Virus record (IMG/VR): IMGVR_UViG_3300023444_000001
Location: 17,938-81,937 of that record
Direction: 5' to 3' (one strand)
Length of the DNA stretch: 64,000 nucleotides
DNA from: a virus
In this document: in pieces, positions 7 to 31,462 of the stretch
Position numbering within the stretch: position 1 is the first letter of the stretch
How the letters are laid out: each line of letters opens with the position of its first letter
Notes under the pieces: model-generated
The model's database searches: none
What the model was told of the DNA's origin: nothing
Seen by the model: the letters and a program-made list of their open reading frames with translations, nothing else
Position numbers and translations under genes: made by a program

Positions 7-3000
7 TCAGTCTTTGGAGTTGATATAATTCTTCCCTTCAACTCTATCACCAAAAACTTTTTTTAATTCTTTTTCCAATTTTGAATTTCGAACTCGAATA
101 ATTTTCACATCCTCAAAGTTTATTCCTCCCTCATGCACAAATTGAACTTCTTTCCGAAATACATTTGAAGCAATTTTCTTCCCTTTAACCTCCAAATTCC
201 CAGTTACCCCTTTATATAAATTTTCTACCCCAGAAAAAGTTTGCCCCTTAATTTTAAACAAAGTTTCCTTCTGAAAAAAGATATCTTTATCCAATACAAA
301 TTTGAACTCTCTATTTTTTCCGACAAATTTCGAGAAATCTAATTCTCCTCCTATCTTTCCCTCTTCTTCTAATGTAGTTGGAATCCTCTTAAACCATAAA
401 GCCTTCATTCCATCTTCACTTTTCAAATTCAAAATAATAGGCTTCAATTCTCTATCTATTGTCTCCACCATCTTTTCTCTTGGAACTGACTCAATATAAA
501 ACTTTTTCAAATTATCTAACATCTCCGACATGAATGTATCACCAATATCTTCCTGCTTTATAGGAATTAACTCCGAAAATCTCTTTGTAGCAAAAATCCT
601 ATTACGAGCCATAATATCTATTGGAGAATCAGAAGTCAAAATATAACTATAGACATCCCTATCCTGACCCAAACGAAAATTTCTCCCATTTCTCTGAATA
701 AATGTCTTAAAATTCTTCGGCAAATCAAGATGAATTGTAACTTTAGCCATTTGAACATTTATTCCTTCAGACTTTGCTGAAGTTAGAATCAAAAATTTCT
801 GCTCTGGAATTTCTGAAAACTTCTTGAGAATCTTTTGCACATCCATATTCTTTGTAGAACCTGTTAAAGCAACAGCCCTATCCTTCCCAAGAAAATTCCT
901 CAAATTCTTTGCTACTTCATTTGATTCTGTATGAATTATAATCTTATCATCGGGATGTTTCTTAGCAATTTTCAAAATTTCCTTATAAAAAGCATTATCT
1001 TTCCCTGAACCAGAACGCAAAACCTTCATTAAATCGTGCCGCCTATGTGTTTCTAATTGAACTAATTCTTTTGTTGCTCCCTTTCTAATCAACTCCTGCT
1101 TCTTAATTTCATACATTTTTTCCAAATTTCTATATTCCATTTTTTGAACTTTAGTCAACTTTACCTTTATTAACTGTTTATTTCTCATTTCAACAGGTAA
1201 AGCCTCATTAAAATAATCAATCAATCTGATCCCTCTTATTGGAGCCTTTGCAACAAATATTGAATCATCGAACAAACTATTAAATGTCTTAACCATCAAA
1301 GGCCGAGCAAAGTTATTCTCTGTTGTCAACCCACCAAAAACTCTTCCTCCAAATTTTGCCCCAGAAAACATATCGACAAATTCTCTCTTTGTCATTCCTG
1401 TTTTTCCGGGCTGTAACCATTCAATAGTATCCCACATCTGCCCAATATTATCCTTTATAGCCGTACCAGTAAGACCAACCTTATATTTAATCCTTTTTGA
1501 AACCAAATCTCTTAAAATCCTTGATTCTTTAGAATATGCTTCATAATCAAACACATCCCCAACAGGAGTTAAATCATGAATTTCATCTATAACAACCATA
1601 TCATACTTCATCCGTAATTCTTTAACCAATGAAGCCGCATCCTTATGTGTTATCACATCTATTTTATACTTACCAGGATTTTTCAACATTTTCAACTCTA
1701 TGTCTCTTTTCCCTGAAATCAATCTTCCCTTATATTTACTAAACTTTTTAATCTCACTAACCCAATTCATTTTTGTTCCTGATGGAACTACAACTAAAGC
1801 CCTTTTTACTTTTCCTGCTGAAATTAAATCTGAAATAGCAGAAATAGATGTCGGAGTTTTTCCAAATCCCACTCCAGCATTGAGTAAAACATTTTTCTGC
1901 TGAACAATAAATTCCTCTGCCGCCCTTTGAACTGGTTTCAAAGTTATACCTTCTTTAATACCCAAAATCTTTCTATCAAATACCCCTCCCTTCAAAACAA
2001 TATTATTTTTTATATCTTCAAACTCATTTTGCCAATTTTTAATTCTCTTCCATCGAATAGCATGAATATCAAGCCATTCTTCAAAATAAAATTTCCTTCT
2101 TTCCGGAAATCCTCTAACCCATTTAGGAATAACATAATAGGCTTTCCCAGTTTTAACATTCTTCCTGATATAAACATTCAAATACCTCATAGCCTTATTA
2201 AATTCCTTTGGAGTTCCTTGACTCCACTTCAATAACAATTCGGGAGAAGGCAAATTTTTTGCCATATCTGCACTTATACCCCAATCTATCAAAGTTTTAC
2301 TTCTTGAACGATAAGGCCAAATCCTATTAGTATAATTTATAAACTCTGATCCACCCAAACTATATGGATCACTCTTAACAAGAGCATCTCTAACAATAGC
2401 ATTTACTATCTCATCAGGAGGAATAAATTTTACAGGAATAAATCTTTCATCATCAATATCTAAAACATCAATTCCAATTTTTTTTAATTCATCTCTTGAA
2501 CCCACATAAGCAATTTCCTTAACCCCATCTCTTGCTTCCGTTATAGCCTCTGGAGTAAAAGATTTCAATGAACCTTTAACTCTAAAAAAGACTTTATGAT
2601 ATTTTTCTGGATTTATCTTAAACTGGTAAAATTTACCTATTTTTCCAAGTATTCCATCTTTTTTAACCTGCAAACCTAAAGTTTCTAATCTTCGCAATGC
2701 AGTTTCTCTTGTTTTTCCAAGTACAACAAAAACATCCTTTGGAGACATTAAAGCCAACCGAATCTGATCTACAGCATTCATACTACCCAGTATTCCACCT
2801 AATTCACTTTGTGCTTGTGAAAATAAACTATCAGCAATTACTCTTGAAGCATTTTTTCCTTTGAATCCAGCCTTTCTCATAGTCCGCAAAGTTGAATATC
2901 CATCATTAAGTAATCCATCAACACTCTTCAATCCACGCTTTGTATAAATTCCAATTCTTTGATGAGTAACCAACTTATCTAAAACCTCTAATAATTTTTT

Positions 3001-4332
3001 TCTGTCCACAGTTTTTGTACTTTGTTTTATTGCTTCAACAAGAACTTGACTTGCATTTTCAACTCCAAGCAAATTAAACTTTTCCCAAGTAAATGCTGGT
3101 TGCCCCAAAAGTTGAAAAGCAATTCCATTCATAGCATCAAAAGCACCTCTTTTGACCGGAAGAGAAAAAGCCGCATTTACAAAATTCTCTACCTCATAAT
3201 AATTACTATTTATAGCCTCCTTCAATTCACTCTCTGATTTCTTAAGAAGAACTTTTGCAAATGTTTTCATCCTACCCTTTCCCCCAACAGACTCCATTTT
3301 TGCAACTTCTCTAACCAAAGACCGAAATGTAGGCCCACTCATTTTATCTAATAAAGCAAGAGTCTCACCTGAAGCAAACCTTTTTGCTCGTTCAATAACA
3401 ATAGAAGGTAATCCTTTATGAACTAAATCTCTTGGAGAAAATTCTTGAGGAGATAATCCAGCCCTTTCAAAGGCTTCTCTTCTACGAGCCATAAGAGCCG
3501 TATAGACTGGACTTAATCCACATTGACAATATGGATGGGGAAATGTTGGGGCCTCATCAGTATAATATACCCCTCGAAGAGAAAGATTTCCAACAGAAAG
3601 ACCCTCTCCTTCAAGAGGTGTTGCATTAGCCAATTTTTCACAAATCTCTACTCCATGTTGATCCAAATGATTTGAAGACAAATCCCACTTAACAAGAGGA
3701 ACTCCCCTTTCTTTTGAAAAAAGAACAGTAGCCTCCTGATAAGCCCTTCCTGCTTCTGATCTAACTAATCTTTGTCCCCATTTTAATTCTGAAGCCCCAT
3801 AAGGAGACCTTCCCGGAATATTATAAGTCAATCTTCCTTTTAACTGTTGTCTAACAAAACTAATGCTTTTCCCCTTTTTAAGAACTGAATACCCAAAAGT
3901 TCTTATACGTTTATCCAAATAATTTAATCTATCTTCAATAGTTAATCCATTAAAGGGCTTAAAATATTGCATAAAAGCCCTTTTCTTAAAATCCTTAATT
4001 TCCTCCATCGAAATTGAAGATAATCCCATTTTTCTAAAAATTCTTTGCTGATGATAAAATGCTCTGTTAATAGATTCTGAAACTGCTTTATTTGTTTTAA
4101 CCTGAAGCCCAAACATCAATTCTTTTGTATTTTGTCGAAGTATTTCTCTTGAAAACTTTTCATCCTCTCGAAGTAAAAATCTCTCACCCTTAAATGAAGA
4201 TGTAACTGTATTTGCAAGATCAGTATATGCTCCATACAAATTATCTCCAATACGTTTACTTTTTCTTACATTTATATCTAACGCATGAACAAAACGCTTT
4301 CTCTGTATTTTCGTAGATAAATACTTAGGCAC
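7..4332 (-). CDS. MuF/SPP1-gp7-like head morphogenesis protein fused to an SNF2-family ATPase
   Basis: N-terminal MuF signature (RLVRSE...ICEKLA...PHPYCQC) directly after the portal. C-terminal half has SNF2 motifs GVGFGKT, VVIDEIH, GLTGT, SEGINVQ and QRNGRNFRLGQ. Confidence 0.85.
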   Translation of the reverse strand: MPKYLSTKIQRKRFVHALDINVRKSKRIGDNLYGAYTDLANTVTSSFKGERFLLREDEKFSREILRQNTKELMFGLQVKTNKAVSESINRAFYHQQRIFRKMGLSSISMEEIKDFKKRAFMQYFKPFNGLTIEDRLNYLDKRIRTFGYSVLKKGKSISFVRQQLKGRLTYNIPGRSPYGASELKWGQRLVRSEAGRAYQEATVLFSKERGVPLVKWDLSSNHLDQHGVEICEKLANATPLEGEGLSVGNLSLRGVYYTDEAPTFPHPYCQCGLSPVYTALMARRREAFERAGLSPQEFSPRDLVHKGLPSIVIERAKRFASGETLALLDKMSGPTFRSLVREVAKMESVGGKGRMKTFAKVLLKKSESELKEAINSNYYEVENFVNAAFSLPVKRGAFDAMNGIAFQLLGQPAFTWEKFNLLGVENASQVLVEAIKQSTKTVDRKKLLEVLDKLVTHQRIGIYTKRGLKSVDGLLNDGYSTLRTMRKAGFKGKNASRVIADSLFSQAQSELGGILGSMNAVDQIRLALMSPKDVFVVLGKTRETALRRLETLGLQVKKDGILGKIGKFYQFKINPEKYHKVFFRVKGSLKSFTPEAITEARDGVKEIAYVGSRDELKKIGIDVLDIDDERFIPVKFIPPDEIVNAIVRDALVKSDPYSLGGSEFINYTNRIWPYRSRSKTLIDWGISADMAKNLPSPELLLKWSQGTPKEFNKAMRYLNVYIRKNVKTGKAYYVIPKWVRGFPERRKFYFEEWLDIHAIRWKRIKNWQNEFEDIKNNIVLKGGVFDRKILGIKEGITLKPVQRAAEEFIVQQKNVLLNAGVGFGKTPTSISAISDLISAGKVKRALVVVPSGTKMNWVSEIKKFSKYKGRLISGKRDIELKMLKNPGKYKIDVITHKDAASLVKELRMKYDMVVIDEIHDLTPVGDVFDYEAYSKESRILRDLVSKRIKYKVGLTGTAIKDNIGQMWDTIEWLQPGKTGMTKREFVDMFSGAKFGGRVFGGLTTENNFARPLMVKTFNSLFDDSIFVAKAPIRGIRLIDYFNEALPVEMRNKQLIKVKLTKVQKMEYRNLEKMYEIKKQELIRKGATKELVQLETHRRHDLMKVLRSGSGKDNAFYKEILKIAKKHPDDKIIIHTESNEVAKNLRNFLGKDRAVALTGSTKNMDVQKILKKFSEIPEQKFLILTSAKSEGINVQMAKVTIHLDLPKNFKTFIQRNGRNFRLGQDRDVYSYILTSDSPIDIMARNRIFATKRFSELIPIKQEDIGDTFMSEMLDNLKKFYIESVPREKMVETIDRELKPIILNLKSEDGMKALWFKRIPTTLEEEGKIGGELDFSKFVGKNREFKFVLDKDIFFQKETLFKIKGQTFSGVENLYKGVTGNLEVKGKKIASNVFRKEVQFVHEGGINFEDVKIIRVRNSKLEKELKKVFGDRVEGKNYINSKD

Positions 4333-7397: not shown

Positions 7398-8365
7398 TCT
7401 TCTTTTAACTCCGCAATAATTTCATAACTTCTTAAATCCACTAAAACCAAAACATCTGGAGGTTTTTTAGGTGCCTTTTCAAGCCAAGAAAAAGCCTCCT
7501 CAATATCTCCTTTTCTTATTAAACTTCTTGCCAATATTACAAAATCTTCTCCAAAATTCGGATTCTCCAGTATATTTTTCTTAACTAAACTAATTGCATC
7601 ATCAAAATTTTCTAATCGTAAACTACTTTCTGCTTTCAATCTTCTTGCATATTGAATATTATATAAAATATAAGACTTTTTCTCTACTATATCAGCAACT
7701 TTATATCCTTCATGAAATTTTTTATGCTCAATCAATTCTCTTGCAAAATGAAGCAATAACCATCCTTCTTTATCATTCTCAAAATCTACTGCTTTTTCAA
7801 CTAAGTCTAAACTCTGTTCTCTTCTCCATTTCTCTCTTTCAAGATTTTTTCTTTTCCTGCATTCAATCCAAACTTTATCAGGAAGAATAACATCCATGAA
7901 ACCAGCACCAATCAATCTATTGTGAACATCTCCTATCCACCAACCTTTATTAACCCGCCATATTCTATTTTGAAATCCCCTAAACCTGAACCTAACTTCG
8001 TTAGTTTTTCTATGCTTATATGGTCTTCTAAAATATGAAAGAGCATATCCAGCCACTTTTTTCCCAGAATTATCTAAAAGACCTCTTAAATATTCAGAAC
8101 TTCCCCTTAAAGTTTCATCTCCATCAACCATAATAGCCCATTCAGTTTTAACAAATGAAGAACAAACATTTCTTAAATGAGCAAAAGAATTATTCCATTT
8201 CTCTTCTAAAACTTTTGCTCCAAATTGTTTTGCCAATTCTACAGTTCCATCCTTTGATCCAGTATCTAAAATCACCATATCATCAACAAAAGGCACAATA
8301 CTCTCCAATGTTTCTTTTAATTCCTCCTCTTCATCTCGTACAATCATTGATAAAGTTAAACCCAT
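7367..8365 (-). CDS. GT2 glycosyltransferase with TPR-like C-terminus
   Basis: LSMIVRDEE, ILDTGSKDGT, FAHLRN and VDGDE motifs followed by a helical repeat-like tail; overlaps the terL start. Confidence 0.85.
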   Translation of the reverse strand: MGLTLSMIVRDEEEELKETLESIVPFVDDMVILDTGSKDGTVELAKQFGAKVLEEKWNNSFAHLRNVCSSFVKTEWAIMVDGDETLRGSSEYLRGLLDNSGKKVAGYALSYFRRPYKHRKTNEVRFRFRGFQNRIWRVNKGWWIGDVHNRLIGAGFMDVILPDKVWIECRKRKNLEREKWRREQSLDLVEKAVDFENDKEGWLLLHFARELIEHKKFHEGYKVADIVEKKSYILYNIQYARRLKAESSLRLENFDDAISLVKKNILENPNFGEDFVILARSLIRKGDIEEAFSWLEKAPKKPPDVLVLVDLRSYEIIAELKEECLKLLEGLV

Positions 8366-8511
8366 ATTTTCCTTACAATATCCATAATTCGACTGCTTTT
8401 ATCAATTTTCTGATTCTTCTTATCAAAATAAGTCTTTTTATTGCTATAAAACCTGCTTGTTCTTCCATATTCAAAATCCAAATATCTGCTCCCACCCTTT
8501 CTCTTTGACAT
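8356..8511 (-). CDS. Small basic hypothetical protein (51 aa)
   Basis: Hand-translated MSKRKGGSRYLDFEYG...; packed tightly between its neighbours. Confidence 0.45.
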   Translation of the reverse strand: MSKRKGGSRYLDFEYGRTSRFYSNKKTYFDKKNQKIDKSSRIMDIVRKIWV

Positions 8512-8649
8512 TCATTTTACCTCTTTCTTCTTTTTCTTATTAGGCAAACGCTTCAAATACTTCTTTCCATACTTACGAACCCATCTTCGAGCAATTCCTG
8601 GGTGAAAAGCAAATAAAAATCTCATCTGTGCTTTTGACTTAAAAGGCAT
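8512..8649 (-). CDS. Small basic phage protein (45 aa, MPFKSKAQ...)
   Basis: Hand-translated MPFKSKAQMRFLFAFHPGIARRW...; AAGGA RBS; this N-terminus recurs in phage packaging regions. Confidence 0.6.
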   Translation of the reverse strand: MPFKSKAQMRFLFAFHPGIARRWVRKYGKKYLKRLPNKKKKKEVK

Positions 8650-8666
8650 CATTCATTCCTTTCTAC

Positions 8667-8709
8667 AAAAAATCCCCCATAAATCTCCCTTTCAGGCTAT
8701 TCATGGGGG
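8667..8709 (-). terminator. Rho-independent terminator
   Basis: Minus-strand CCCCCATGAAT...ATTTATGGGGG stem followed by ATTTTTT. Confidence 0.65.
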
Positions 8710-8740
8710 CACTATAGTCAATCTAATTATCAAACTAATA

Positions 8741-8989
8741 TTACAATATCTTTTTTCTCCTGTCAACCTTAACAACACTATATTTTCCAGATTCTATCCA
8801 TTTACGTGCTAATTCTCTATCTTCTTCCCTCCCACAATCCAAATTTCTATCTGGATACATCAGCATATCTTCCAAACAATGAGCCACTGTACCAGTATAT
8901 ATCATTCCAGGGCGTCTCCCATTTCCCCAATTAGAAATAATTGCCAACAACTCATAAACTCTTTCTCTTAACAAAGTATTTGAACCCAT
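8741..8989 (-). CDS. Hypothetical protein
   Basis: ORF-track 8741..9034; likely start MGSNTLL abutting the ruvC stop. Confidence 0.55.
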   Translation of the reverse strand: MGSNTLLRERVYELLAIISNWGNGRRPGMIYTGTVAHCLEDMLMYPDRNLDCGREEDRELARKWIESGKYSVVKVDRRKKIL

Positions 8990-9483
8990 TATTTTACTCC
9001 AACAAAATTTATTTTTAACCGTCTTCTTCCCCACTCCGCTAAAAGCAAAGCCTCAGCCAACCCATGATCTTTTCTAATCCAATCATAACTTATTTTAGGA
9101 AAAATCCTTTTAACTGCCACAAGAGATTTTCCTTTCTTATCTGACCCGGGAATACCAATTAGCATATCTCTTTTCCATTTAACCGGAGATACCAACTCAA
9201 AAGGAATTTTCAAACAAGAAAGTATTCCTATCCAAACCCCATATCCATATCCATAATTAAACATTGAAGATACACCCTGCTTCGGCATAGCCTGGGCTTT
9301 TTCTACAATAGCATAAATTTTCTTTTTCTTTGCAACCCCCAAACAAATAATCTCAACCATCTTAGACTCATCATATAATCGTTTTCCCGAAACTCTAATA
9401 AATGGACATTTAACAACTTTAATTTCTTTTTCATCAAGAAAAGCCACTGCTCCAGTTATCCCTGGATCAATCCCAATAATCAT
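8989..9483 (-). CDS. ruvC: RuvC-like Holliday junction resolvase
   Basis: IIGIDPG, VEK, SMFNYGYGYG, PVKWK, DHGLAEALLLA. Confidence 0.88.
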   Translation of the reverse strand: MIIGIDPGITGAVAFLDEKEIKVVKCPFIRVSGKRLYDESKMVEIICLGVAKKKKIYAIVEKAQAMPKQGVSSMFNYGYGYGVWIGILSCLKIPFELVSPVKWKRDMLIGIPGSDKKGKSLVAVKRIFPKISYDWIRKDHGLAEALLLAEWGRRRLKINFVGVK

Positions 9484-9674
9484 TCTTCCCTCCGTGCTTT
9501 TTCTCTCAAAAGTTTATAAGCAATCTGTATTCGCTTATCAACCTCCTTTCTCCATTTTATTCTATCTTCCTCAGATTGATTTTTTATATAAGGAGGAAGA
9601 GGCGGCCAATTAACATCTTTTAGAACTGACTTAATAGAACTCGATGATTTCTCTTTTTTCAAAAATTTTTTCAT
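9480..9674 (-). CDS. Hypothetical protein
   Basis: ORF in operon; ATGA overlap with ruvC. Confidence 0.55.
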   Translation of the reverse strand: MKKFLKKEKSSSSIKSVLKDVNWPPLPPYIKNQSEEDRIKWRKEVDKRIQIAYKLLREKARREE

Positions 9675-9677
9675 AAC

Positions 9678-9869
9678 TTATTCTTTTTCCTTTTTACAAT
9701 CAAGCATATTTCTAACCGGAATATCAACCTGTGCTCTCCAAGCCTTATCAAATCTTGAAAATTTTGGCATAGGTTCAGGCTTAACCCCTCTTACTAAATC
9801 AATACCCCTTTTATAACAATCCATACAAATAATAGCCGTCTTAACACCACATTTCCTGCACAGCATCAA
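9678..9869 (-). CDS. Small Cys-motif (Zn-ribbon-like) protein
   Basis: CRKC...CMDC; AAGGAG RBS. Confidence 0.55.
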   Translation of the reverse strand: MMLCRKCGVKTAIICMDCYKRGIDLVRGVKPEPMPKFSRFDKAWRAQVDIPVRNMLDCKKEKE

Positions 9870-9890
9870 TTTTCTCCTTTCAATTTTTTC

Positions 9891-10100
9891 TTAATGAAAC
9901 ACATAATATGCCCAAGCATATCCCAGCCCCACGCAGAGCATCCCCCACAATATCCACGGAGTAGCCCGGTCGATCATCTCGGTGATCTTGCCAGGCTGAT
10001 ATGGTGGCACATCCCGCCAATCGCCCTGGCGGACATGATCTCTAAGGTGCCAGAGTCTCAGTGCATCCCAATCTTGTCTACTACGCTCTTGTGGGTTCAT
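9891..10100 (-). CDS. Small membrane protein (C-terminal TM)
   Basis: WILWGMLCVGLGYAWAYYVF hydrophobic tail; lies in the high-GC island. Confidence 0.55.
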   Translation of the reverse strand: MNPQERSRQDWDALRLWHLRDHVRQGDWRDVPPYQPGKITEMIDRATPWILWGMLCVGLGYAWAYYVFH

Positions 10101-10387
10101 GGCTTTCCCTCCTCTATCACCCGGTTGACTGCTTCCAGGTCCGCAATCTTACGCTCCAATTCGCATCGCTGTTCGATGGCCTTCTTTAGTTCCGCCATTG
10201 CCCAATCGCGCTTGCGCTCTGTATTCTGCAGTTGTACTACAGCCTCGATATACGCCCGTCTGAGGTCCAGCACTTGTTGATCTTGGCGCAAGACCTCTAC
10301 CACGACTATGGCACGGAAGAGGTACAATATGCCTATCAGGATTCCACTGAAGGCAACTGAGCCTATGACAATTTCGTACCAATGCAC
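10097..10387 (-). CDS. N-terminal TM plus coiled-coil protein
   Basis: Probable GTG start after GGAGG; IVIGSVAFSGILIGILYLF then a coiled coil. Confidence 0.55.
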   Translation of the reverse strand: MHWYEIVIGSVAFSGILIGILYLFRAIVVVEVLRQDQQVLDLRRAYIEAVVQLQNTERKRDWAMAELKKAIEQRCELERKIADLEAVNRVIEEGKP

Positions 10388-10617
10388 TTTTAGCCTCCTC
10401 TCTTTATATGGCCCCCGGTGGGGTGATCGACTGCTGGCCTGCAAGTCTCCACTCTGCACCCTCTATACCGGGGGCTCATGGTCATTTATCCTGTCCCGGA
10501 GGGCCTGTATCCTGCGCTCGATGTGTCCCTTGACACCCTCCAGTTCCTCAATGGTCTGCTGGTAGCAGATTATCGCGACTTTGTTCGTGTCCATGTTTCA
10601 CCTCCATTTGGTTAACA

Positions 10618-10839
10618 TTATCGTTTCTGATAGTATTCAAAGACCATAACTATCATCTGCGTTAATGTCTCGTTGCCTTCTATTAACCCCTTTATTGTCC
10701 GTCCGTCTCTGCCGAAGTTTACAAGCATAGTGGCCCGTGCCTCCAGCAACTCTCGCTTCATCGGCAGAATATCATCCTCCTCAAGCGCTTTGACCAGTTC
10801 CCATATCTTACATCGGTTTAATCTCATTGCCCCCCCCAT
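10618..10839 (-). CDS. Hypothetical protein
   Basis: ORF in the co-oriented small-gene array. Confidence 0.5.
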   Translation of the reverse strand: MGGAMRLNRCKIWELVKALEEDDILPMKRELLEARATMLVNFGRDGRTIKGLIEGNETLTQMIVMVFEYYQKR

Positions 10840-10841
10840 AT

Positions 10842-11048
10842 CTAATTAGATGTGCGTCTTAATGCCTGATAGAAAACGTCATTCATCAGTAATTTTTTTC
10901 TGGTATCGCTGATAAACTCAGAGCCGCCCAGACAAAAATCAGGATGCCTTGAGTAGAACTCCTCAAATTGTCTAAGATACGCATCAGCGGCCTGCATCTG
11001 TTCTGCTGTCCCGTAAGGCATTGTTAATATTTTTTTCGCCCTTTTCAT
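10842..11048 (-). CDS. Hypothetical protein
   Basis: AAGGAGG RBS; co-oriented. Confidence 0.55.
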   Translation of the reverse strand: MKRAKKILTMPYGTAEQMQAADAYLRQFEEFYSRHPDFCLGGSEFISDTRKKLLMNDVFYQALRRTSN

Positions 11049-11082
11049 CTTTCCCTCCTTTTCAGGTTGCGGCCAGTGGCCG

Positions 11083-11394
11083 TTAGTCCTTTATCAGGTT
11101 TATGACGTTGTCTTTCGTTATCTCTGCTATGACCGCTGGGGGCAAATTCCAAAAGTTTATTACTATAGGCTTCCTGGTGTCTGTAATGATTGCCAGGTCC
11201 CCACCACGGCCGGGGCAGATAGTCACATGGTCATTGCGACGTTCTGCCTGCCGCGCCGCCTCTTCGAGTATGGCCTTTGCGTCGCCAGTGCGCATGATAT
11301 TATCGCCTGCATCGCTTGCCAGGTGATACGCATGCCGGAACACCGGGCCGTGAAGGGTTAATTGTCTGGTTTCGGAAATTTCAATGTAAAGCAT
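11083..11394 (-). CDS. Hypothetical protein
   Basis: Start reassigned to MLYIEISE after a GGAGG RBS. Confidence 0.55.
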   Translation of the reverse strand: MLYIEISETRQLTLHGPVFRHAYHLASDAGDNIMRTGDAKAILEEAARQAERRNDHVTICPGRGGDLAIITDTRKPIVINFWNLPPAVIAEITKDNVINLIKD

Positions 11395-11405
11395 GTCACA
11401 CCTCC

Positions 11406-11615
11406 TCAATCCTGCCAGCCCTCGAAGGGCCCGCATGTAATCTGCCTCTGTGCAGTCGTCACCATAGCGCTGTTTGTATGCCTGCCAGACCACCAATGTT
11501 CGTCTGGTTTTTCTCCATGTAATGACTTATTGGCGGGGCAAGGAATCTTTTCCAATTGTGCACATGAGGGAATATGTTTAATTTGTTCAGATTTTTTCAT
11601 CTCATCCCTCCTCAA
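11406..11615 (-). CDS. Hypothetical protein spanning the GC-island junction
   Basis: GAGGAGG RBS near 11610; the 5' part is AT-rich and the 3' part GC-rich. Confidence 0.45.
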   Translation of the reverse strand: MRRDEMKKSEQIKHIPSCAQLEKIPCPANKSLHGEKPDEHWWSGRHTNSAMVTTAQRQITCGPFEGWQD

Positions 11616-11639
11616 TTAAATCAAAACCAAATTTTTTCT

Positions 11640-11894
11640 TTAATCCCATCCCCAACAACCACAATAATATAAATCTGTCTCTTTATCCGGTCGATAAGAG
11701 AAAAATGGTAATCCAATCCTTGAATCTGTAACATTATCACATTGACAGCATTCAGCCTTTCTTCCTTCCAAAGAAGGCATTTCAGCAATTTCTATGGCTT
11801 CCGGAACTATACCAAAACAACTTGCACAAACCGGATTTCCTTTTTCATCAACAGCAGTTGCTGTATGTCCACATTTCATCATAACTATAGACAT
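11640..11894 (-). CDS. Small Cys-rich Zn-binding protein
   Basis: CGH, CASC, CCQC, YYCGC; AAGGAGG RBS. Confidence 0.65.
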   Translation of the reverse strand: MSIVMMKCGHTATAVDEKGNPVCASCFGIVPEAIEIAEMPSLEGRKAECCQCDNVTDSRIGLPFFSYRPDKETDLYYCGCWGWD

Positions 11895-11911
11895 TTTTCC
11901 CTCCTTTAGTA

Positions 11912-11940
11912 AAAATAATACCTTTCCTCACAAAAATCAA
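11912..11940 (-). promoter_or_regulatory. Putative sigma70-type promoter
   Basis: TTGATT-N17-TATTTT upstream of the RBS of 11640..11894. Confidence 0.4.
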
Positions 11941-11946
11941 ATTTTC

Positions 11947-12462
11947 TTATTTCAGATATGAATATGAATACACATCCTTCAAAGTCCGAAATTTATCTCC
12001 TTTTCCCATTCCATATCCAACAAGAAAGCCATCCTCCTCTCTTACTTTGAATCCGACATATTTCACCCTATCTATGCCCTTATCCCTTTCAAACAAAACA
12101 CATCCCTCAATAGACCTCGGATTTTCCTTCTCTAAAGACCTTTTTACTTCTTCAAAACTTTTTCCTGTGTCTAAAATATCATCTATAATCAAAACATTTC
12201 TATCTTTCACTTTCTTCAAATCAAACATGAAGTTTACTTTCAAATTTTCCGAAGGATTTAATTCTTCTCCATAAGAAAAAACTCCAGCAAATTGAATTTC
12301 CGGTGATAAACCAGAATATCGAATTAAATCCCATCCAAAAGGAAATCCTCCTTTCAATACAATAAGAAAGAAAGGATTCTTTCCCCAATAATCAAAATTT
12401 ATTCTCCGAGATATTTCATAAACCTTTCCTTTTATTTCCCTTTCCTTAAATATTTTCTTCAT
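11947..12462 (-). CDS. hpt: Hypoxanthine-guanine phosphoribosyltransferase-like protein
   Basis: VLKGG, SYG loop, PRPP motif VLIIDDILDTG, FLVGYGM...FRTL. Confidence 0.88.
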   Translation of the reverse strand: MKKIFKEREIKGKVYEISRRINFDYWGKNPFFLIVLKGGFPFGWDLIRYSGLSPEIQFAGVFSYGEELNPSENLKVNFMFDLKKVKDRNVLIIDDILDTGKSFEEVKRSLEKENPRSIEGCVLFERDKGIDRVKYVGFKVREEDGFLVGYGMGKGDKFRTLKDVYSYSYLK

Positions 12463-12513
12463 TTTTTACCTCCTTTAGTAAACTGAACTTTTCTAATCTC
12501 ATTCTTTTTTAAG

Positions 12514-12547
12514 AAAAAATTAGACCGGACTTTTCAAAATCCAGTCT
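12514..12547 (-). terminator. Rho-independent terminator downstream of the CRISPR-like repeat
   Basis: Minus-strand AGACTGGATTTT-GA-AAAGTCCGGTCT hairpin (with G.U pairs) followed by AATTTTTT. Confidence 0.65.
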
Positions 12548-12635
12548 TTTTTTAAGAAGAGTATCCATGACCCTCTTTTGTCTATCCATTTAAGGGGGGG
12601 GGGTATTATCTTTCTTTCCTTTCCCTCTATAGGAT

Positions 12636-12667
12636 GTTTCAATCCACGCCCCCGCGCGGGGGGCGAC
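12636..12667 (-). CRISPR. Solitary type I-C CRISPR repeat (SRU or mini-array remnant)
   Basis: GTCGCCCCCCGCGCGGGGGCGTGGATTGAAAC: 32 nt, GCCCCC/GGGGGC hairpin, ATTGAAAC 3' handle; single copy with no cas operon in the window. Confidence 0.85.
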
Positions 12668-12700
12668 TGTATACACCTCAAGTGTTTTAACTCCTTTGAA

Positions 12701-12955
12701 TTACATCTTCATTTCCGACATCCTCCTTTCATATTCAGAATCAAAAAATTTCGTCTTATTTCCACATTCAGAACAAATTCCTTCAAACTCTGTTTCCTCT
12801 TCATCTATTGTTCTCCAACATTTCATTTCATCAGACAATTTTACTGGAGGTTCTCCACAACAAATAGACCTCCAATCTGGCTCAAACTCTTCTTCTCTTT
12901 CACAAAATTTCTCTGCTTTACAACGACAACAATTCATTGTACACATCTCATCCAT
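12701..12955 (-). CDS. Small acidic Cys-rich protein
   Basis: 84 aa, very Glu-rich, several CC/CxxC motifs; immediately upstream of the repeat. Confidence 0.6.
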   Translation of the reverse strand: MDEMCTMNCCRCKAEKFCEREEEFEPDWRSICCGEPPVKLSDEMKCWRTIDEEETEFEGICSECGNKTKFFDSEYERRMSEMKM

Positions 12956-12961
12956 TTTTTC

Positions 12962-13132
12962 TCACTTATCTTTCAAAAGTGTTACGTGAATAACCTCAAC
13001 CCACTTTCTACACCTTGCACACTTTCCAAATACAAGATCAGTTGGATATTCGAGATCAGAGGTCAAAGTTCCATAAATTGGCCAATGACCACAAATAGTC
13101 TTCCAATCCTTATCAATTCTAATTCTTTTCAT
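12962..13132 (-). CDS. Small Zn-ribbon protein
   Basis: Start reassigned to MKRIRIDK after GGAGG; CGH...CARC. Confidence 0.55.
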   Translation of the reverse strand: MKRIRIDKDWKTICGHWPIYGTLTSDLEYPTDLVFGKCARCRKWVEVIHVTLLKDK

Positions 13133-13427
13133 TTTGTGCCTCCAATTTTCGATACCATTCTTCAGGATACCCAGGATACTCCATTCTACGAAGAGTGGAG
13201 CGAATCCCAAGGTCTTTAGCCAACTTATCACGAAGATCAAACCAAGGATTGTAATCCACATTATCACCTTGTTCTTCACTCCAGCACTCTGGGAAAACCA
13301 TCCCTGCTAAAGCGTGTGAATATCTCTCGTTCCTATCTAATCTTGATACTGCATCTGTTATAGCAACCAAGATTTCCTCACGACCATTGAGTTTTACAAG
13401 TGCTGATTTTATTGTCGATATACGCAT
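13119..13427 (-). CDS. Early hypothetical protein, paralog of 14225..14524
   Basis: Start MRISTIK after GGAGG; shares RYSHALAGM...GIRSTLRRMEYPGYPEEWY with its paralog. Confidence 0.75.
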   Translation of the reverse strand: MRISTIKSALVKLNGREEILVAITDAVSRLDRNERYSHALAGMVFPECWSEEQGDNVDYNPWFDLRDKLAKDLGIRSTLRRMEYPGYPEEWYRKLEAQNEKN

Positions 13428-13590
13428 TACAAACCTCCCTTTCATTATACCAATCTTCTTCTCCATCATCCCACCGAATTTTTACTCTTCCTTTATGAGA
13501 ATCCAAAGCAATTACTTCTGCATATCGTACTTTATCCCCTTCTGGAATTTCCAAATTCTGTTTGAGATAAAACATTGTTGATTGTCTCAT
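13378..13590 (-). CDS. Small SH3/Tudor-like early protein
   Basis: Start MRQSTMF after GGAGG, just downstream of a promoter; GDKVRYAEVI...VKIRWDDGEEDW beta-barrel pattern. Confidence 0.6.
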   Translation of the reverse strand: MRQSTMFYLKQNLEIPEGDKVRYAEVIALDSHKGRVKIRWDDGEEDWYNEREVCNAYIDNKISTCKTQWS

Positions 13591-13610
13591 TGTAACCTCC
13601 CTTTGTTTGA

Positions 13611-13665
13611 AAGTTAAAGTTTGATTGTATAATATAATATAATATATCTCTTTGAAAAAGTCAAG
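13611..13665 (-). promoter_or_regulatory. Strong early promoter (copy 1)
   Basis: TTGACT-N17-TATATT; 55 bp identical to 31397..31451. Confidence 0.85.
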
Positions 13666-13695
13666 GGTTTTGTTTGTCAAAAGATTCTTTCCTCC

Positions 13696-13884
13696 TTACT
13701 CAATCTCACAATATTCCTCAATTAGACTGATAACCTCAGAATATGACGAACTTTCAAAAGCACGTTTAACAAACTCTTTTGCTCTCTCCTTCTCCCCAGC
13801 CTTTAGCAAAGCCTTCTTCGTAAGGCCAATCAAATTGAAAACATTCCCATTCTTTCCAACCAATTTCACTACTGGCTTTTCCAT
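13696..13884 (-). CDS. Conserved small phage protein (VKLVGxxGNxF type)
   Basis: KPVVKLVGKNGNVFNLIG...KAL...SY; GGAGG RBS. Confidence 0.7.
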   Translation of the reverse strand: MEKPVVKLVGKNGNVFNLIGLTKKALLKAGEKERAKEFVKRAFESSSYSEVISLIEEYCEIE

Positions 13885-14093
13885 TTTATTCCTCCTTGTT
13901 TTGAACCTGGTTGAACCTGGATTTTACCATCCAAAGTCTTAGTCACCAAAGACAACTCTGAATTTTCATCCATCCCAAAAACTACCAACAAATAAGCAAC
14001 ATTCCTTCCAATTTCATCACCACACCAATGGCACATAACCTTCCCATTCCCCAAAACAACTATTCTCTCCATTACCATTGAAATGCAATCCAA
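13869..14093 (-). CDS. Hypothetical Zn-finger-like protein
   Basis: CHWC motif; AGGAG RBS upstream. Confidence 0.45.
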   Translation of the reverse strand: MDCISMVMERIVVLGNGKVMCHWCGDEIGRNVAYLLVVFGMDENSELSLVTKTLDGKIQVQPGSKQGGIKWKSQ

Positions 14094-14224
14094 GCCAATT
14101 CATCATTTTCTCCTTATTTTTTTAGTCCTAAAATCAACTGTGCTGTGTTCAAAAAGAAGAGAGGAAGAAAAAAGAAGCCAAAATTTTCTCTTCCTCTCTT
14201 CTCAAATCAGAATCAATCCCAATC

Positions 14225-14524
14225 TCAATCGGTGGCATCCAACTTTTGGTACCATTCTTCAGGATAACCCGGATATTCCATTCTGCGAAGAGTGGAACGA
14301 ATCCCATATTCTTTTGCCAACTTATGCCGGAGATCAAACCAAGGAGTGTAGTCAACCCAATCTCCCTGTTCATCAGACCAACACTCCGGGAGAACCATCC
14401 CTGCCAAGGCATGAGAATATCTCTCACCTCGATTTAATTTTGTCAGAGCATCTGTTATCGCCGCAAGAATCTCCTCCCGACCACCCAATTCCGCCAACAC
14501 ACCTTTTATTGTCCTAACTCGCAT
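14225..14524 (-). CDS. Early hypothetical protein, paralog of 13119..13427
   Basis: GGAGG RBS; high amino-acid similarity to its paralog. Confidence 0.75.
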   Translation of the reverse strand: MRVRTIKGVLAELGGREEILAAITDALTKLNRGERYSHALAGMVLPECWSDEQGDWVDYTPWFDLRHKLAKEYGIRSTLRRMEYPGYPEEWYQKLDATD

Positions 14525-14604
14525 TGCAACCTCCTTCTTGTTTCCTTGTTTTGCACCAAATCATTTTCACAGTTTCTTCATCTCATCCTTACTTTTGCCT
14601 TTGT

Positions 14605-15006
14605 TTAGGATTGAAGAAGTAACTCCTCCTTTTGTTCTTTTGTCATTTCCTTAAGTAAGAGAATTTTTCCATTAAGGATTGCATATCTGTTGAGTTGACC
14701 ATAGGTCATTAACATCTCTACATCCTCAACTCCTTGATCGAGAAGTTGTTGTAACTCTTCTCTTGAATAAAACCTGTTACGAGGTTTCACTTCAACCCCA
14801 CCTTTGAAATATGCTCTATTTTCAACAAAGGTGGAAAATGGAGAAGGTTTCTCTATCTCTCCTTTTTGAATTGAAGTATAACAGTGAGTAGCACCCCACT
14901 GTTGCTTCTTTCTCCAAAATTCGTGTGTCTTGTTTCCGTATCTCATAGCCTTATTACTTCGGCTATTTACCCCAGACCGGATTTGAATTGTAGAGTGGGT
15001 AGTCAT
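14605..15006 (-). CDS. Early hypothetical protein
   Basis: First gene after the promoter at 15058-15086; AAGGAGG RBS. Confidence 0.7.
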   Translation of the reverse strand: MTTHSTIQIRSGVNSRSNKAMRYGNKTHEFWRKKQQWGATHCYTSIQKGEIEKPSPFSTFVENRAYFKGGVEVKPRNRFYSREELQQLLDQGVEDVEMLMTYGQLNRYAILNGKILLLKEMTKEQKEELLLQS

Positions 15007-15040
15007 TTTGTGCCTCCTTAAAGTTAAGGTTAAAAGTGAA

Positions 15041-15094
15041 GTTTAATTGTATAATATAATATAATATATTTGCTTGAAAAAGTCAAGGGTTTTG
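15041..15094 (-). promoter_or_regulatory. Strong early promoter (copy 2)
   Basis: TTGACT-N17-TATATT with the same TATAT pentamer run as the other copies. Confidence 0.85.
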
Positions 15095-15497
15095 TTAAAA
15101 AATTTTTACAGTCTAAAATAACAACTCCTTACTTTTCTTATTTCAAAAATCAAATTCACTATTACTACTCTCTATAATGTCTACTTTTCTACATACACTC
15201 TCAATCATTGTCGCCTATATGAGGGTACCCGCATTAACTTGTTCTTATTTCTTAACTTACAAAAGTGGGAAATTTTTCACATACTGCTATTCTGTAACAA
15301 TTCTTACATTAAATTCTTCTATAAACGACATCCTATTTACCTCAATAATCTTTCTAACCTACTGTCAATAAATAACTTACAATATAAAACCTCTCTTCTA
15401 TTTCAAAAAGAGAAGTCTTTTTTCTTAATTCTAAATTTCAATTTTACTCTCTCTTCACAACTTCAAATTTCTTATTTTTATGTTCCATAATTTCAAA

Positions 15498-15770
15498 TTA
15501 ACTCAACTCATTTCTTTATACTGATCTATACTAAAATATCTATAAAATTCATTAACTCAACTGGTAGGCAAAAATTTCCTATCTCCATAAAATTCAATAT
15601 ACCTTCAAATGCTGTAACTTATTGCCTACCAACGAGTTCCATAAGCCTCCCACCTATTTGACAAAAACAAACTTGATTTCTATACAATAACACAACTCTA
15701 TCCTAATTACTGGAATTGGACTTATCTTTATAACTTCTTGGTAGGAAACTACTTAACTCAACTGAAGGCT
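15498..15770. repeat. Cluster of short direct and inverted repeats in the long non-coding region
   Basis: TTAACTCAACT at 15498, 15552 and 15753; AACTCAACTGGTAGGCAA (15554-15571) inverted against TTGCCTACCAACGAGTT (15622-15638); AACTTCTTGGTAGGAAA at 15732. Confidence 0.6.
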
Positions 15771-16035
15771 AAGAAGGTAAGAAATTTCTCTTCTGTTCTT
15801 TTTCTATACAAACAACCTAAAAGAACCACTTTTTCCCTTTTTTCTTTATTCCCGCAAAAATTTAATTCATTATACCTTATTCTATTATCCTTTGAAACCC
15901 TTCTTTTATATTTACCGCGAAATTTCAAGGAATACCAACCTTGGCGCAAAACCTTCCAAAATTTTTAAACTTTTAACAACCTTAATAAGAAAATCCTCTT
16001 ACAACTATCAATCTTTTCCCCGCGAAAATTTCAAA

Positions 16036-16695
16036 TTATTTCCATCTAATACCAACTCTTACCAACCCTTTTCCCCCGAAAATATATGCTCCACCGAAAT
16101 CTACAAACTCATTTATATTCCTTGTTGCAACCATTCCTCCAAAAAATTTCTTAGAATTTAATCCCAATCCTCCCAATAACCCGAAATTCGTATGAAATAA
16201 ATGAAGAGACTGAAGTTCCATAGACAATCCTACTTCCGATTTCGGATATATCCCTCCCACCGAAATTCTCCAATAATTCTCCAGCCATTTTTCTCCTTTT
16301 TCTGCTCTTTCTTTCTTTATAGCCTGAGTAGGAGCAACTATTTTTCCTTCACTTGTTTCTCCTTTTATCTTGACTTCTTTATTCTTTTCCTCAACTATAT
16401 GAACTTTTGAAACAGGAGTGGGAAATTTAAGTTCTGTTTCTGATTTTACTGCTGGATGTAATTCCTTATTTCCAACGATCTTCCTGTTTATCTTTGCATA
16501 CCCTTCTTTTTCCAATTTTTTGCCATAATCTGTTTCCATCTGCTCAAAAATCTTATTATATTTCAATTCCATACTTTTATTCTTATACCAGATATAACCA
16601 AAAACTACTGCAAGTATCAAAATCAAATGCCATAATTCAACTGAAATTCTCAAGTGCTTTCGCATTTCCAATATCCTATTTGAAAGATAGAGCAC
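16036..16695 (-). CDS. Membrane-anchored protein with a beta-rich C-terminus (possible lysis/spanin-like)
   Basis: N-terminal TM (LWHLILILAVVFGYIWY), charged linker, Gly/aromatic beta-strands ending VRVGIRWK. Confidence 0.5.
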   Translation of the reverse strand: MLYLSNRILEMRKHLRISVELWHLILILAVVFGYIWYKNKSMELKYNKIFEQMETDYGKKLEKEGYAKINRKIVGNKELHPAVKSETELKFPTPVSKVHIVEEKNKEVKIKGETSEGKIVAPTQAIKKERAEKGEKWLENYWRISVGGIYPKSEVGLSMELQSLHLFHTNFGLLGGLGLNSKKFFGGMVATRNINEFVDFGGAYIFGGKGLVRVGIRWK

Positions 16696-16705
16696 AAAAG
16701 ATTAA

Positions 16706-16801
16706 AATTCTTAAAATAAGCCTGCTCACGAGGTTTTCTTATACCGAGTAATATAAAGAGATTAAAAAAAGAGAACTCCTCACAGAACCCATCAAATGAA
16801 G
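16706..16801. repeat. ~95-bp dispersed intergenic element, copy C (diverged)
   Basis: AATTCTTAAAATAA ... ATGAAG ends, 96 bp; same position relative to the upstream stop codon as copies A and B. Confidence 0.45.
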
Positions 16802-16808
16802 TCATACG

Positions 16809-18239
16809 TTATTTCCCAAAAATTTCCCGCAAAATTCCTTTTCCTTTGGCTCGTATAAAAACCTCATCCCTATTATCTCCCATATTCTTCAATGTCTGAG
16901 CCATATCCATCAACGTTCTTAATTGATCGGTAACATTTGGATCAAGAACTCCTCCATCAGATTTTTCTATGTGAACAGCATGAAAAGTTCTCTGAGCCTC
17001 TATCTCAATAACTGTCTTTACAAGATTTAACAAATCAGAAGAACCTTCTATTTTGAAAGTAAAATCATATCCACAAAGACTTCCTTCTTTATATCGGGGA
17101 CAATTTTCATCCAAATAACACGTATTACAGGAAATCTTTTCAACTATCCTTTCATCTAAAACAGGGACTTTTGGCTTTTTTTCAATAACTTCACTTTTTA
17201 CTTCAACAATTTCATTGTCTCTTTTCATACTTGCTTTCACCCCCTTATTTCCTAACTTCTTGGCTTCTTTTATATCTTCCGGACTTAACCAATAAGCATT
17301 TTTACATTGATATTTATACCAATCAGTCCACTTTTTCCACATGAAAGCATTGATGATATTACAAGGTCTTGCCAATCCATTCTTAAATCCTTCCCAATCA
17401 AACTTGTCCCCAATAGTTTCTTCTATTTCTTCCTTATACTTTTTTTCTATTTTGCTTTTGAATTTCTTTCTCAATATATCGGACTTTTTTCTCGTATCAG
17501 CAATTATCTCAAAATTTTCCATTCGTCCATGTGAAGAGAAAAATATTGCTCCAAATCTTCCACCAGAAATCCAACTTGTAGAATCTACAGTAAAAAATGG
17601 TCTTCTTACTATATCTTTTTCACTACTTAAACCAAACCCATGAAGCAATATTTTCTTTTTTCTTGCAAATCTAAAATACCGATGTAAAGTCAAATCACTC
17701 CGTACCCAACCTGACCCTGTTCCAATGTAATCATAGGCATCAAACCATCCTAAATCTTCTATTTCTTTATTTGACTCACCTTGCAAAACAGGTATCAGAT
17801 GTATTCCCATGTCTTTCGCCTTATTTAACCACTTTACTCTCTCTGCTTTTCCAAAATCCTCAGAAGTAAAATCTAATTCAGCGAACGCTTGAACAGATTC
17901 TCTCATCTTAAAGGCAAAATCTAAATATTCATTATAATACTGCTCTATATCAAGACTTTTCCCTTTTGCCCCTCCAGATTTTTCTAAATCTATATTCAAC
18001 GTATATCCACCTGAATCAATAAATACAAAATCAAAGTCTCTCAAAAATTCTTCTTTTAACTGTTCTATAGACTTTTTCCTTATCAACTTTCTTAAATAGT
18101 AAAAAGACAATAATACATTTCTAATTCCTATCATTCTCAATATACTTCTAAACTCGTTTGTCTCCGCACCAGCAAAAAGCAAACAAGTATTGTATATCTT
18201 TGGATAACATCGAAATTCCATGCCATTAAATTCTTGCAT
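16809..18239 (-). CDS. dpdA: DpdA/TGT-like deazaguanine DNA transglycosylase with a C-terminal Cys-rich/helical domain
   Basis: FIDSGGYT, AELD, IPVLQG, LHGFG and VDSTSW motifs of phage TGT-like proteins; clustered with queCDE and folE. Confidence 0.75.
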   Translation of the reverse strand: MQEFNGMEFRCYPKIYNTCLLFAGAETNEFRSILRMIGIRNVLLSFYYLRKLIRKKSIEQLKEEFLRDFDFVFIDSGGYTLNIDLEKSGGAKGKSLDIEQYYNEYLDFAFKMRESVQAFAELDFTSEDFGKAERVKWLNKAKDMGIHLIPVLQGESNKEIEDLGWFDAYDYIGTGSGWVRSDLTLHRYFRFARKKKILLHGFGLSSEKDIVRRPFFTVDSTSWISGGRFGAIFFSSHGRMENFEIIADTRKKSDILRKKFKSKIEKKYKEEIEETIGDKFDWEGFKNGLARPCNIINAFMWKKWTDWYKYQCKNAYWLSPEDIKEAKKLGNKGVKASMKRDNEIVEVKSEVIEKKPKVPVLDERIVEKISCNTCYLDENCPRYKEGSLCGYDFTFKIEGSSDLLNLVKTVIEIEAQRTFHAVHIEKSDGGVLDPNVTDQLRTLMDMAQTLKNMGDNRDEVFIRAKGKGILREIFGK

Positions 18240-31396: not shown

Positions 31397-31451
31397 AAGT
31401 TAAAGTTTGATTGTATAATATAATATAATATATCTCTTTGAAAAAGTCAAG
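31397..31451 (-). promoter_or_regulatory. Strong early promoter (copy 3)
   Basis: Identical 55 bp to 13611..13665; TTGACT-N17-TATATT. Confidence 0.85.
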
Positions 31452-31462
31452 AGAATTGTTAT

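Follow-up and report, generated by a model that had tools for sequence, protein, structure and literature searches.

A lone type I-C CRISPR repeat in a microbial-mat phage is a candidate RNA anti-CRISPR

A repeat behind four small genes

We analysed 64,000 nucleotides (nt) of viral DNA (hereafter the window), which correspond to bases 17938–81937 of IMG/VR virus record IMGVR_UViG_3300023444_000001. This record is 81,937 bp long, carries 127-bp direct terminal repeats, and is rated complete, and it comes from a microbial-mat metagenome in which the phage DNA was located. On the minus strand of the window, a perfect repeat of the type found in type I-C CRISPR arrays follows orfD, the last of four small open reading frames (ORFs), and precedes a phosphoribosyltransferase (PRTase) gene. 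Behind the repeat lie a 32-nt spacer-like segment, a run of ten cytosines (C10), and an intrinsic terminator (Table 1). An original prediction for this site, made from the letters alone, had described the perfect repeat in its transcribed orientation and the 32-nt segment and terminator that follow it, and each of these features was recovered.

Table 1. Features of the repeat region in the window and of the same repeat in three other viral contigs (L004, L006, and L009)
Feature	Position	Strand	Remarks
Sigma-70-like promoter	13664..13636	-	TTGACT-17-TATATT; 997 nt upstream of repeat
orfA	13378..13590	-	70 amino acids; first operon gene; GGGAGG ribosome-binding site upstream
orfB	13119..13427	-	102 amino acids; paralogue at 14225-14524 behind second promoter copy
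orfC	12962..13132	-	56 amino acids; GGAGG ribosome-binding site; start overlaps orfB stop
orfD	12701..12955	-	84 amino acids; Cys-rich, Glu/Asp-rich orphan; stop 33 nt before repeat
Linker, 33 nt	12668..12700	-	orfD stop to repeat
53-codon ORF through repeat	12681..12520	-	TTG start, AAAGGAG 9 nt upstream
Type I-C CRISPR repeat	12667..12636	-	Perfect; CRISPR RNA (crRNA) sense; GTCGCCCCCCGCGCGGGGGCGTGGATTGAAAC
Spacer-like segment, 32 nt	12635..12604	-	ATCC...AATA; ATCCTATAGAGGGAAAGGAAAGAAAGATAATA
C10 run	12603..12594	-	Directly after spacer-like segment
TTAAATGGATAGAC	12593..12580	-	After C10; rest of alleged decayed repeat; about 30 nt then to terminator
Intrinsic terminator	12512..12547	-	11-bp stem 12547..12522, 4-nt loop, T-rich tail AATTTTTTCT
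PRTase gene	12462..11947	-	Next gene after repeat region
L004, lone copy	8107-8138		40-codon ORF reads through repeat
L006, two-repeat mini-array and two variant lone copies	3608-3704, 10250-10281, 10912-10943
L009, lone copy and mini-array	1071-1102, 1868-1967		Reverse

The repeat is intergenic, with the stop of orfD on one side and the start of the PRTase gene on the other, and matches a known repeat at 32 of 32 positions. Comparison with real type I-C arrays, which had been proposed as a check together with the original prediction, revealed the exact 32-mer in at least 120 bacterial genome-contig stretches, with arrays of up to 107 copies among the matches listed. The nearest plasmid matches are arrays of Nitratidesulfovibrio vulgaris with 90–95% identity. 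In locus L091, from a Syntrophus metagenome-assembled genome (MAG), the array follows ORFs for Cas5d, Csd1, and Cas7 (PF09704, PF09709, and PF05107) in the same orientation and comprises 13 copies with at most one mismatch and then a degenerate last copy. Because this array is co-oriented with its cas genes, the GTCGCC-to-GAAAC direction is the transcribed sense, and it is also the sense of the gene strand in the phage.

By using RNAfold, we obtained the structure ..(((((((.....)))))))........... for the repeat at −15.1 kcal/mol, which corresponds to a 2-nt overhang, a 7-bp stem, a 5-nt loop, and an 11-nt 3′ tail that starts with UGG (UGGAUUGAAAC). Type I-C repeats are reported to have this same 2-nt/7-bp/5-nt/11-nt architecture and cleavage geometry, with the 5′ handle and the site of cleavage both recognized by Cas5c (PMC8524198). 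The predicted Cas5c cut falls between 12647 and 12646. In Rfam, the repeat is only a subthreshold match to CRISPR-DR9 (23.4 bits, where the gathering score is 45), and the window contains no Rfam family above threshold and no transfer RNA gene; matches to L20-leader, RsaE, and U6atac were rejected as noise driven by the terminator. Given its architecture and the presence of the same repeat in arrays beside cas5d-csd1(cas8c)-cas7, the repeat is, judged by sequence and predicted fold, a genuine type I-C repeat in crRNA-sense orientation.

With as many as three mismatches allowed, the repeat occurs once in the window, compared with no occurrence in 100 shuffles, and the count for the whole 81,937-bp record is likewise one. 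SRUFinder classifies a repeat as solitary if no partial repeat of more than 70% identity is present within 100 bp (PMC10651486). The best local alignments of our repeat to its 100-nt flanks reach 15/32 (47%) and 13/32 (41%), both of which are in the range of shuffled sequence. The original prediction had seen a decayed repeat-like sequence behind the spacer-like segment and had offered a mini-array as one interpretation. Under scoring similar to that of SRUFinder, the repeat aligns best with the downstream 100 nt in register and without gaps, at 15/32, but 222 of 1000 shuffled flanks equaled or exceeded this score, and a stricter second scoring scheme likewise gave a chance-level result. We therefore rejected the second repeat, and the mini-array with it because no second repeat rises beyond chance, and retained only the C10 run as an anomaly. 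By the published rule, the unit is solitary and is not a mini-array.

The same class is indicated by the nature of the match, which is full length, intergenic, located in a virus, and not associated with cas5d or cas7. Searches of the complete record with Cas5d and Cas7 profiles returned no matches, with both controls positive, in agreement with the earlier claim that no cas operon is present in the window. A search of the phage for Csd1 also gave no match, but its control was silent as well, and this search is uninformative.

The original prediction had also placed a strong promoter about 1 kb upstream and had described the repeat as the end of an early operon. A site that is promoter-like by sequence was found at this distance. 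The site falls inside a 65-nt element (13610–13674) that has a second copy at 15032–15096 with 89% identity, and its 18-nt core is present on the gene strand as two exact copies and one copy with three mismatches, compared with 0.22 expected. Both copies of the 65-nt element precede paralogous orphan genes (orfB and its paralogue), whose products share 76% amino acid identity. The third, weaker copy of the core is at 31438–31455. The terminator behind the repeat is the sole strong minus-strand terminator call in 8000–17000. Because there is no promoter-like site between orfD and the repeat and no terminator call between orfD and 12547, the repeat would most simply be the 3′ end of the operon transcript. 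The placement at the end of an operon is thereby kept, whereas "early" is an assumption and is unproven.

None of the proteins encoded by orfA through orfD has a relative in Pfam, PHROG, or PDB. For orfA, no Pfam family rose above noise, and orfB gave no Pfam or PHROG match and no relative among viral contigs. The orfD protein, for which Pfam, PHROG, and PDB gave no match, was compared with 5.8 billion and 1.84 billion proteins and found only itself, apart from weak matches to repetitive proteins; two of these (P0005 and P0006) were dismissed as noise. Two 84-amino acid, Cys-rich proteins flank the repeat region, namely that of orfD upstream and that of an ORF at 11640–11894 downstream beyond the PRTase gene, and the latter has no family match.

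The phage has a guanine-plus-cytosine (GC) content of about 33% with strong strand skew, and its minus strand bears every ORF of at least 200 amino acids. Pfam matches include portal, baseplate, and tape-measure proteins, a family A DNA polymerase, a DnaB-like helicase, glycosyltransferases, methyltransferases, and a radical SAM enzyme. The baseplate is of the contractile-tail type, and the virus is a tailed phage. A search of the phage revealed neither a tyrosine nor a serine recombinase (integrase), and the idea that the repeat marks an integration site was dropped for this reason; this 82-kb AT-rich mat phage is apparently virulent. At 10000–11600, the window contains a block of about 50% GC with small orphan ORFs. 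In another run of the same study, the part at 10487–11481 is present with approximately 95–99% identity at 42–52× depth. That copy has GC-rich flanks, lacks the phage flanks, and has 21 other letters in place of a 366-nt stretch. A protein from the block has one 99%-identical match, located on a 1,246-nt contig. The block looks as if it had recently been exchanged with a genome or element of higher GC content.

Flanks and distribution of the repeat

The 24 nt immediately before the repeat resemble the ends of type I-C array leaders. We built a position weight matrix (PWM) from 25 nonredundant arrays by taking, in each, the 24 nt that immediately precede the first repeat, and the phage sequence scored 4.9 bits in register with this matrix, placing it in the top 0.58% of 24-mers on the phage coding strand; the result stands when loci L117 and L118 are left out. 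A 12-nt identity with the leaders of L117 and L118 was set aside because it is out of register and within shuffle range. None of the six other viral copies of the repeat has a leader-like front (fractions 0.15–0.80). The three nucleotides before the phage repeat are ACA and not TTC. The leader-like front weakly suggests that the source of the captured unit was an array's leader-proximal end.

On the opposite side, the C10 run departs strongly from chance expectation: cytosine makes up 10.6% of coding-strand bases, and this strand has no other run of eight or more cytosines in the whole genome. The run could derive from the C6 stretch of a second repeat since lost, or it may have some other role. 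Contigs of the source run end exactly at the edge of the C10 run.

Three other viral contigs, with a GC content of 53–56%, contain the same repeat (Table 1). In these contigs the repeats are set between small, often Cys-rich ORFs. Relatives of the phage were sought through the PRTase, orfD, and orfB, and none were found. A terminase with 38–40% identity is present in six viral loci, none of which has a repeat-like sequence, and pattern searches for the upstream junction and for the repeat plus a C run found nothing.

The original prediction had expected that the repeat would help to identify the host, and we rejected this use of it because the exact 32-mer is present in MAGs of many phyla. Labels among the matches listed include Thermodesulfobacteriota/Deltaproteobacteria, Acidobacteriota, Verrucomicrobiota, Planctomycetota, Chloroflexota, Bacillota, Bacteroidia, Gemmatimonadota, Alphaproteobacteria and Betaproteobacteria, and others.

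The repeat is also abundant in the mat itself. Contigs with the same repeat and GC-rich spacers are present in both DNA runs, and the repeat was found in an RNA library from the same sample; therefore, I-C systems with this repeat coexist with the phage, and repeat-containing RNA is abundant. The RNA evidence consists of contigs of a small RNA run, which carry no information on starts, ends, or strand. Exact phage pieces in this run lie at 8000–8144, 9978–10114, 11893–12095, and 15160–15332, and none of the RNA pieces listed covers the repeat flanks, which says nothing either way. Some RNA with the repeat is present in the mat at extreme abundance. In the 15-million-letter metatranscriptome, one 56-nt RNA contig with a depth of about 11,800 contains a variant of the repeat with two mismatches, preceded by 24 nt that are rather AT rich and are not those of the phage.

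Decoy, guide, or relic

The reading that we favor, and which we hold to be about an even call, is by analogy that the element is a type I-C solitary repeat unit that would act as an RNA anti-CRISPR (Racr). RacrIC1, from a prophage of Bifidobacterium pseudocatenulatum, is located 11 nt behind an AcrIC5 homologue; the two are co-transcribed, and RacrIC1 by itself inhibits I-C (Camara-Wilpert et al. 2023, PMC10651486). We file the phage unit as a Racr-type member because its layout is the same as that of RacrIC1–AcrIC5, and this placement is supported by its uniqueness in the genome, its intergenic site, its operon and terminator context, and a phage that is free of cas5d and cas7. The identity and fold of the repeat, its copies in three other viral contigs, and the coexistence of I-C systems with the phage in the mat also speak for this reading. 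In this arrangement, orfD occupies the position that AcrIC5 holds beside RacrIC1, making it only a candidate anti-CRISPR (Acr) gene by position. The trick as such is already known, and our case is a new example rather than a new principle.

Under the Racr reading, the promoter would drive a single transcript that comprises orfA through orfD and the repeat and ends at the terminator. In a type I-C host, Cas5c would recognize the 7-bp/5-nt hairpin and the U22-G23-G24 that follow it and would cut at the predicted position, after which Cas5c would stay with the downstream product, on its 11-nt 5′ handle. This product would be about 134 nt long and would consist of the handle, the 32-nt purine-rich segment, the C10 run, and the terminator hairpin. 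Cas7 and Cas8c might then assemble on this RNA of the phage's choosing, so that Cascade subunits would be drawn from host guides and interference would be lowered.

Several points weigh against this interpretation. A decoy mechanism in type I-C would be an extrapolation from the one mechanistically studied Racr, which is of type I-F and in which inhibition comes from the RNA upstream of the cut (PMC10651486). In type I-C, Cas5c retains the downstream product of cleavage via the 5′ handle (PMC8524198), and therefore the RNA that would be loaded is the downstream fragment, unlike in I-F, which blurs the distinction between decoy and guide. Many solitary repeats have their own promoter directly in front (PMC10651486), and no promoter-like site is present between orfD and our repeat. 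The upstream ORFs match no known Acr or other family. The GC content of the phage is 33%, and none of the 128 exact-repeat loci examined falls below 43.6%. A pure decoy would need neither the unique C10 run nor the leader-like end upstream, and it leaves both unexplained. Finally, no close relative of the phage is present in the collections searched, such that conservation of the element is not assessable.

The foremost alternative, which we consider possible but clearly less probable than the Racr reading, is that the unit is a one-repeat guide cassette, in which a type I-C 5′ handle would be placed on the next 28–32 nt and host Cascade would be re-aimed. Such a guide might direct cleavage of a sibling phage that carries the sequence flanked by TTC, in the manner of a mini-array, or might bind a host promoter through a short seed, for example that of the cascade operon, in the manner of Cracr or crlRNA. 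Retention of the downstream product by Cas5c speaks for this alternative, because the sequence after the repeat is then what is loaded, and the order of repeat, spacer-like stretch, and terminator is the layout described for CracrVA1 (10.1101/2024.10.29.618823). The spacer-like segment is 78% purine and 31% GC, resembling the phage coding strand and not the GC-rich spacers found with the same repeat in the mat, which is the composition to be expected if it were a related phage's protospacer. The leader-like 24 nt would fit capture of the leader-proximal end of an array. Self-targeting would not arise, since the segment's own copy is flanked by the repeat and TTC followed by a seed of at least 7 nt of the segment is absent anywhere in the phage genome.

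The target searches go largely the other way. The original prediction had proposed that the 32-nt segment be searched for a target with a TTC protospacer-adjacent motif (PAM), and none was found in viral or metagenome contigs or in the phage itself. The 32-, 20-, and 22-nt forms of the segment gave no exact match in viral and metagenome contigs, although this test is weak because the collections contain no close relative of the phage. A search of cultured phages found no target, comparison with the examined repeat loci yielded nothing beyond 10–13-nt words, and the best match within the phage's own genome is 22/32. In the reverse direction, none of 1,180 spacers from the examined arrays matches the phage genome, the best cases being 19 nt with two mismatches or 15–17 nt. 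These spacers have a modal length of 34 nt, and only 25 of them are 32 nt long; a 32-nt spacer would be short for this repeat. A guide cassette is also disfavored by the lack of a second repeat and by the ACA, rather than TTC, directly before the repeat.

The only lead came from a short seed. TTC followed by the first 10 nt of the segment occurs once in 820,930 bases of examined loci, at 531–543 of L091 (minus strand), which is on the opposite strand and 107–119 nt upstream of the cas5d start in a locus whose array has the exact repeat. For comparison, 36 of 81,927 phage 10-mers (0.044%) have a TTC match in the 24 usable regions upstream of cas5d, and 2,120 (2.6%) have one anywhere in the examined loci. 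The seed match was therefore seen in one of 24 such regions, and its position was noticed post hoc, in a genome for which there is no reason to suppose that it is the host. No clear promoter adjoins the site. A search of this Syntrophus genome only for a CreR-like element with the same seed returned four matches, compared with six in a reversed-pattern control, which leaves the L091 genome without a CreR-like partner. We treat the L091 match as a lead only.

We also considered a more specific version of this idea, which we judge to be unlikely. The phage may keep a captured leader-proximal end of a type I-C array as a one-repeat guide cassette, such that a handle released by Cas5c, followed by a 28–32-nt guide and by a terminator about 90 nt on, would re-aim Cascade at siblings that lack the insert or, by the 10-nt seed, at the promoter of the host cascade operon. 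Because a leader-like end stands in register before a single repeat, host Cas1–Cas2 could perhaps even insert spacers into the unit while it resides in the phage genome.

It is similarly doubtful that the element is an inert relic, that is, a piece of a host I-C array that recombined into the phage, has not yet decayed, and has no role. With 75% GC in a 33% GC genome, the element is clearly foreign, and the GC-rich block at about 10000–11600, a second foreign block 1 kb away, shows that the phage picks up DNA. Recombination between spacers and phage protospacers, reportedly described by Varble et al. in 2019, would provide a capture route. The leader-like end and the C10/TGGAT remnant also fit capture of an array fragment, and there are no relatives that could show conservation. 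However, the first repeat is intact at 32/32 while the alleged second is at chance level, which suggests either selection on the first or a very recent capture. The orientation of the repeat and its intergenic position at the end of an operon fit use as RNA, and other viruses have kept the same repeat as lone copies. Moreover, nine Racr candidates that were functionally tested were confirmed to have strong inhibition (PMC10651486).

Lastly, the repeat might owe its place to an assembly that was joined via an abundant sequence. The summed depths of the repeat bin are 1286, 3321, and 1256 (two DNA runs and one RNA run), compared with phage depths of 35–51 on both sides of the repeat in the source run. 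Independent contigs of the probable source run cover 8313–12603, 12642–12726, and 12697–13640 at depths of 35–47, and among the pieces listed (157 further pieces stand apart from these) none spans 12604–12641. Nevertheless, an 85-nt contig with a depth of 47.5 links 26 nt of the repeat to the upstream phage flank, and at this phage-like depth the upstream junction between phage and repeat is therefore bridged. The best-supported repeat-spacer-repeat joints in the source run, among the joints listed (there are 12 more), are GC rich and reach a depth of only 19.7; therefore, no array at phage depth has been collapsed. Some contigs in two runs have loose ends at 12625, 12637, 12668, 12671, and 12726, where they share the repeat or its edge and then continue with 92–255 nt of other AT-rich sequence. 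These contigs may come from variant strains or from further AT-rich elements with the same repeat. Both an assembly artefact and a real coding ORF through the repeat are very improbable, because the flanks are also alike in composition and gene strand, and because the 53-codon ORF, though open across the repeat, the spacer-like segment, the C10 run, and the terminator, begins with TTG and ends within the terminator stem, and L004 reads the same repeat in another frame.

Relation to known systems and significance

The closest counterpart of the phage unit is RacrIC1–AcrIC5, with which it shares a single intergenic type I-C repeat that closely follows a small ORF on the same strand and lacks a promoter of its own. 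The gap is 33 nt here and 11 nt there, and the ORF upstream is an orphan here rather than a known Acr. Also unlike RacrIC1, our repeat is a perfect match to a widespread repeat in an uncultured mat phage of 33% GC and is known from sequence alone, and it is preceded by a leader-like 24 nt and followed by a unique C10 run and a terminator. As in other viral solitary repeat units, the virus carries no cas genes and the repeat sequence and hairpin are retained.

Viral Cracr/crlRNA elements are reported to match host cas or creT promoters with at least nine PAM-proximal nucleotides and a PAM; their repeats are degenerate, and Cracrs were found by their similarity to host CreR/CreA (Liu et al., 10.1101/2024.10.29.618823). 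The phage unit resembles these elements and host CreR/CreA (10.1101/2023.03.10.532045) in its order of repeat, spacer-like stretch, and terminator, and it resembles Cracr in having a spacer-like stretch below canonical length and one 10-nt PAM-proximal TTC match upstream of cas5d. In contrast to Cracr, its repeat is perfect, no matching CreR/CreA was found in the one Syntrophus genome searched, and the sole promoter-side match is in a genome not known as that of the host. Viral mini-arrays have at least two repeats and spacers that mostly match related viruses (PMC11656645). The unit shares with them a host-type repeat in a virus without cas genes and a viral-looking spacer-like stretch, but it has one repeat and no spacer match. 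Canonical type I-C (Dvulg) arrays have the identical repeat and fold, and their leader ends are resembled by the upstream 24 nt; unlike such arrays, the phage unit is a single copy with no cas genes, is located in a phage operon, and has no leader promoter.

Phage-borne solitary repeats form an established class of RNA anti-CRISPRs, and an example of type I-C beside an acr gene has already been validated. The unit described here adds a clean and perfect type I-C copy in a different setting, in which the mat community expresses RNA with the same repeat. Because the processing enzyme stays with the downstream fragment, this element could show whether type I-C solitary repeats act as decoys or as guides. 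In addition, the four orphan proteins encoded upstream are candidates for new anti-CRISPR proteins.

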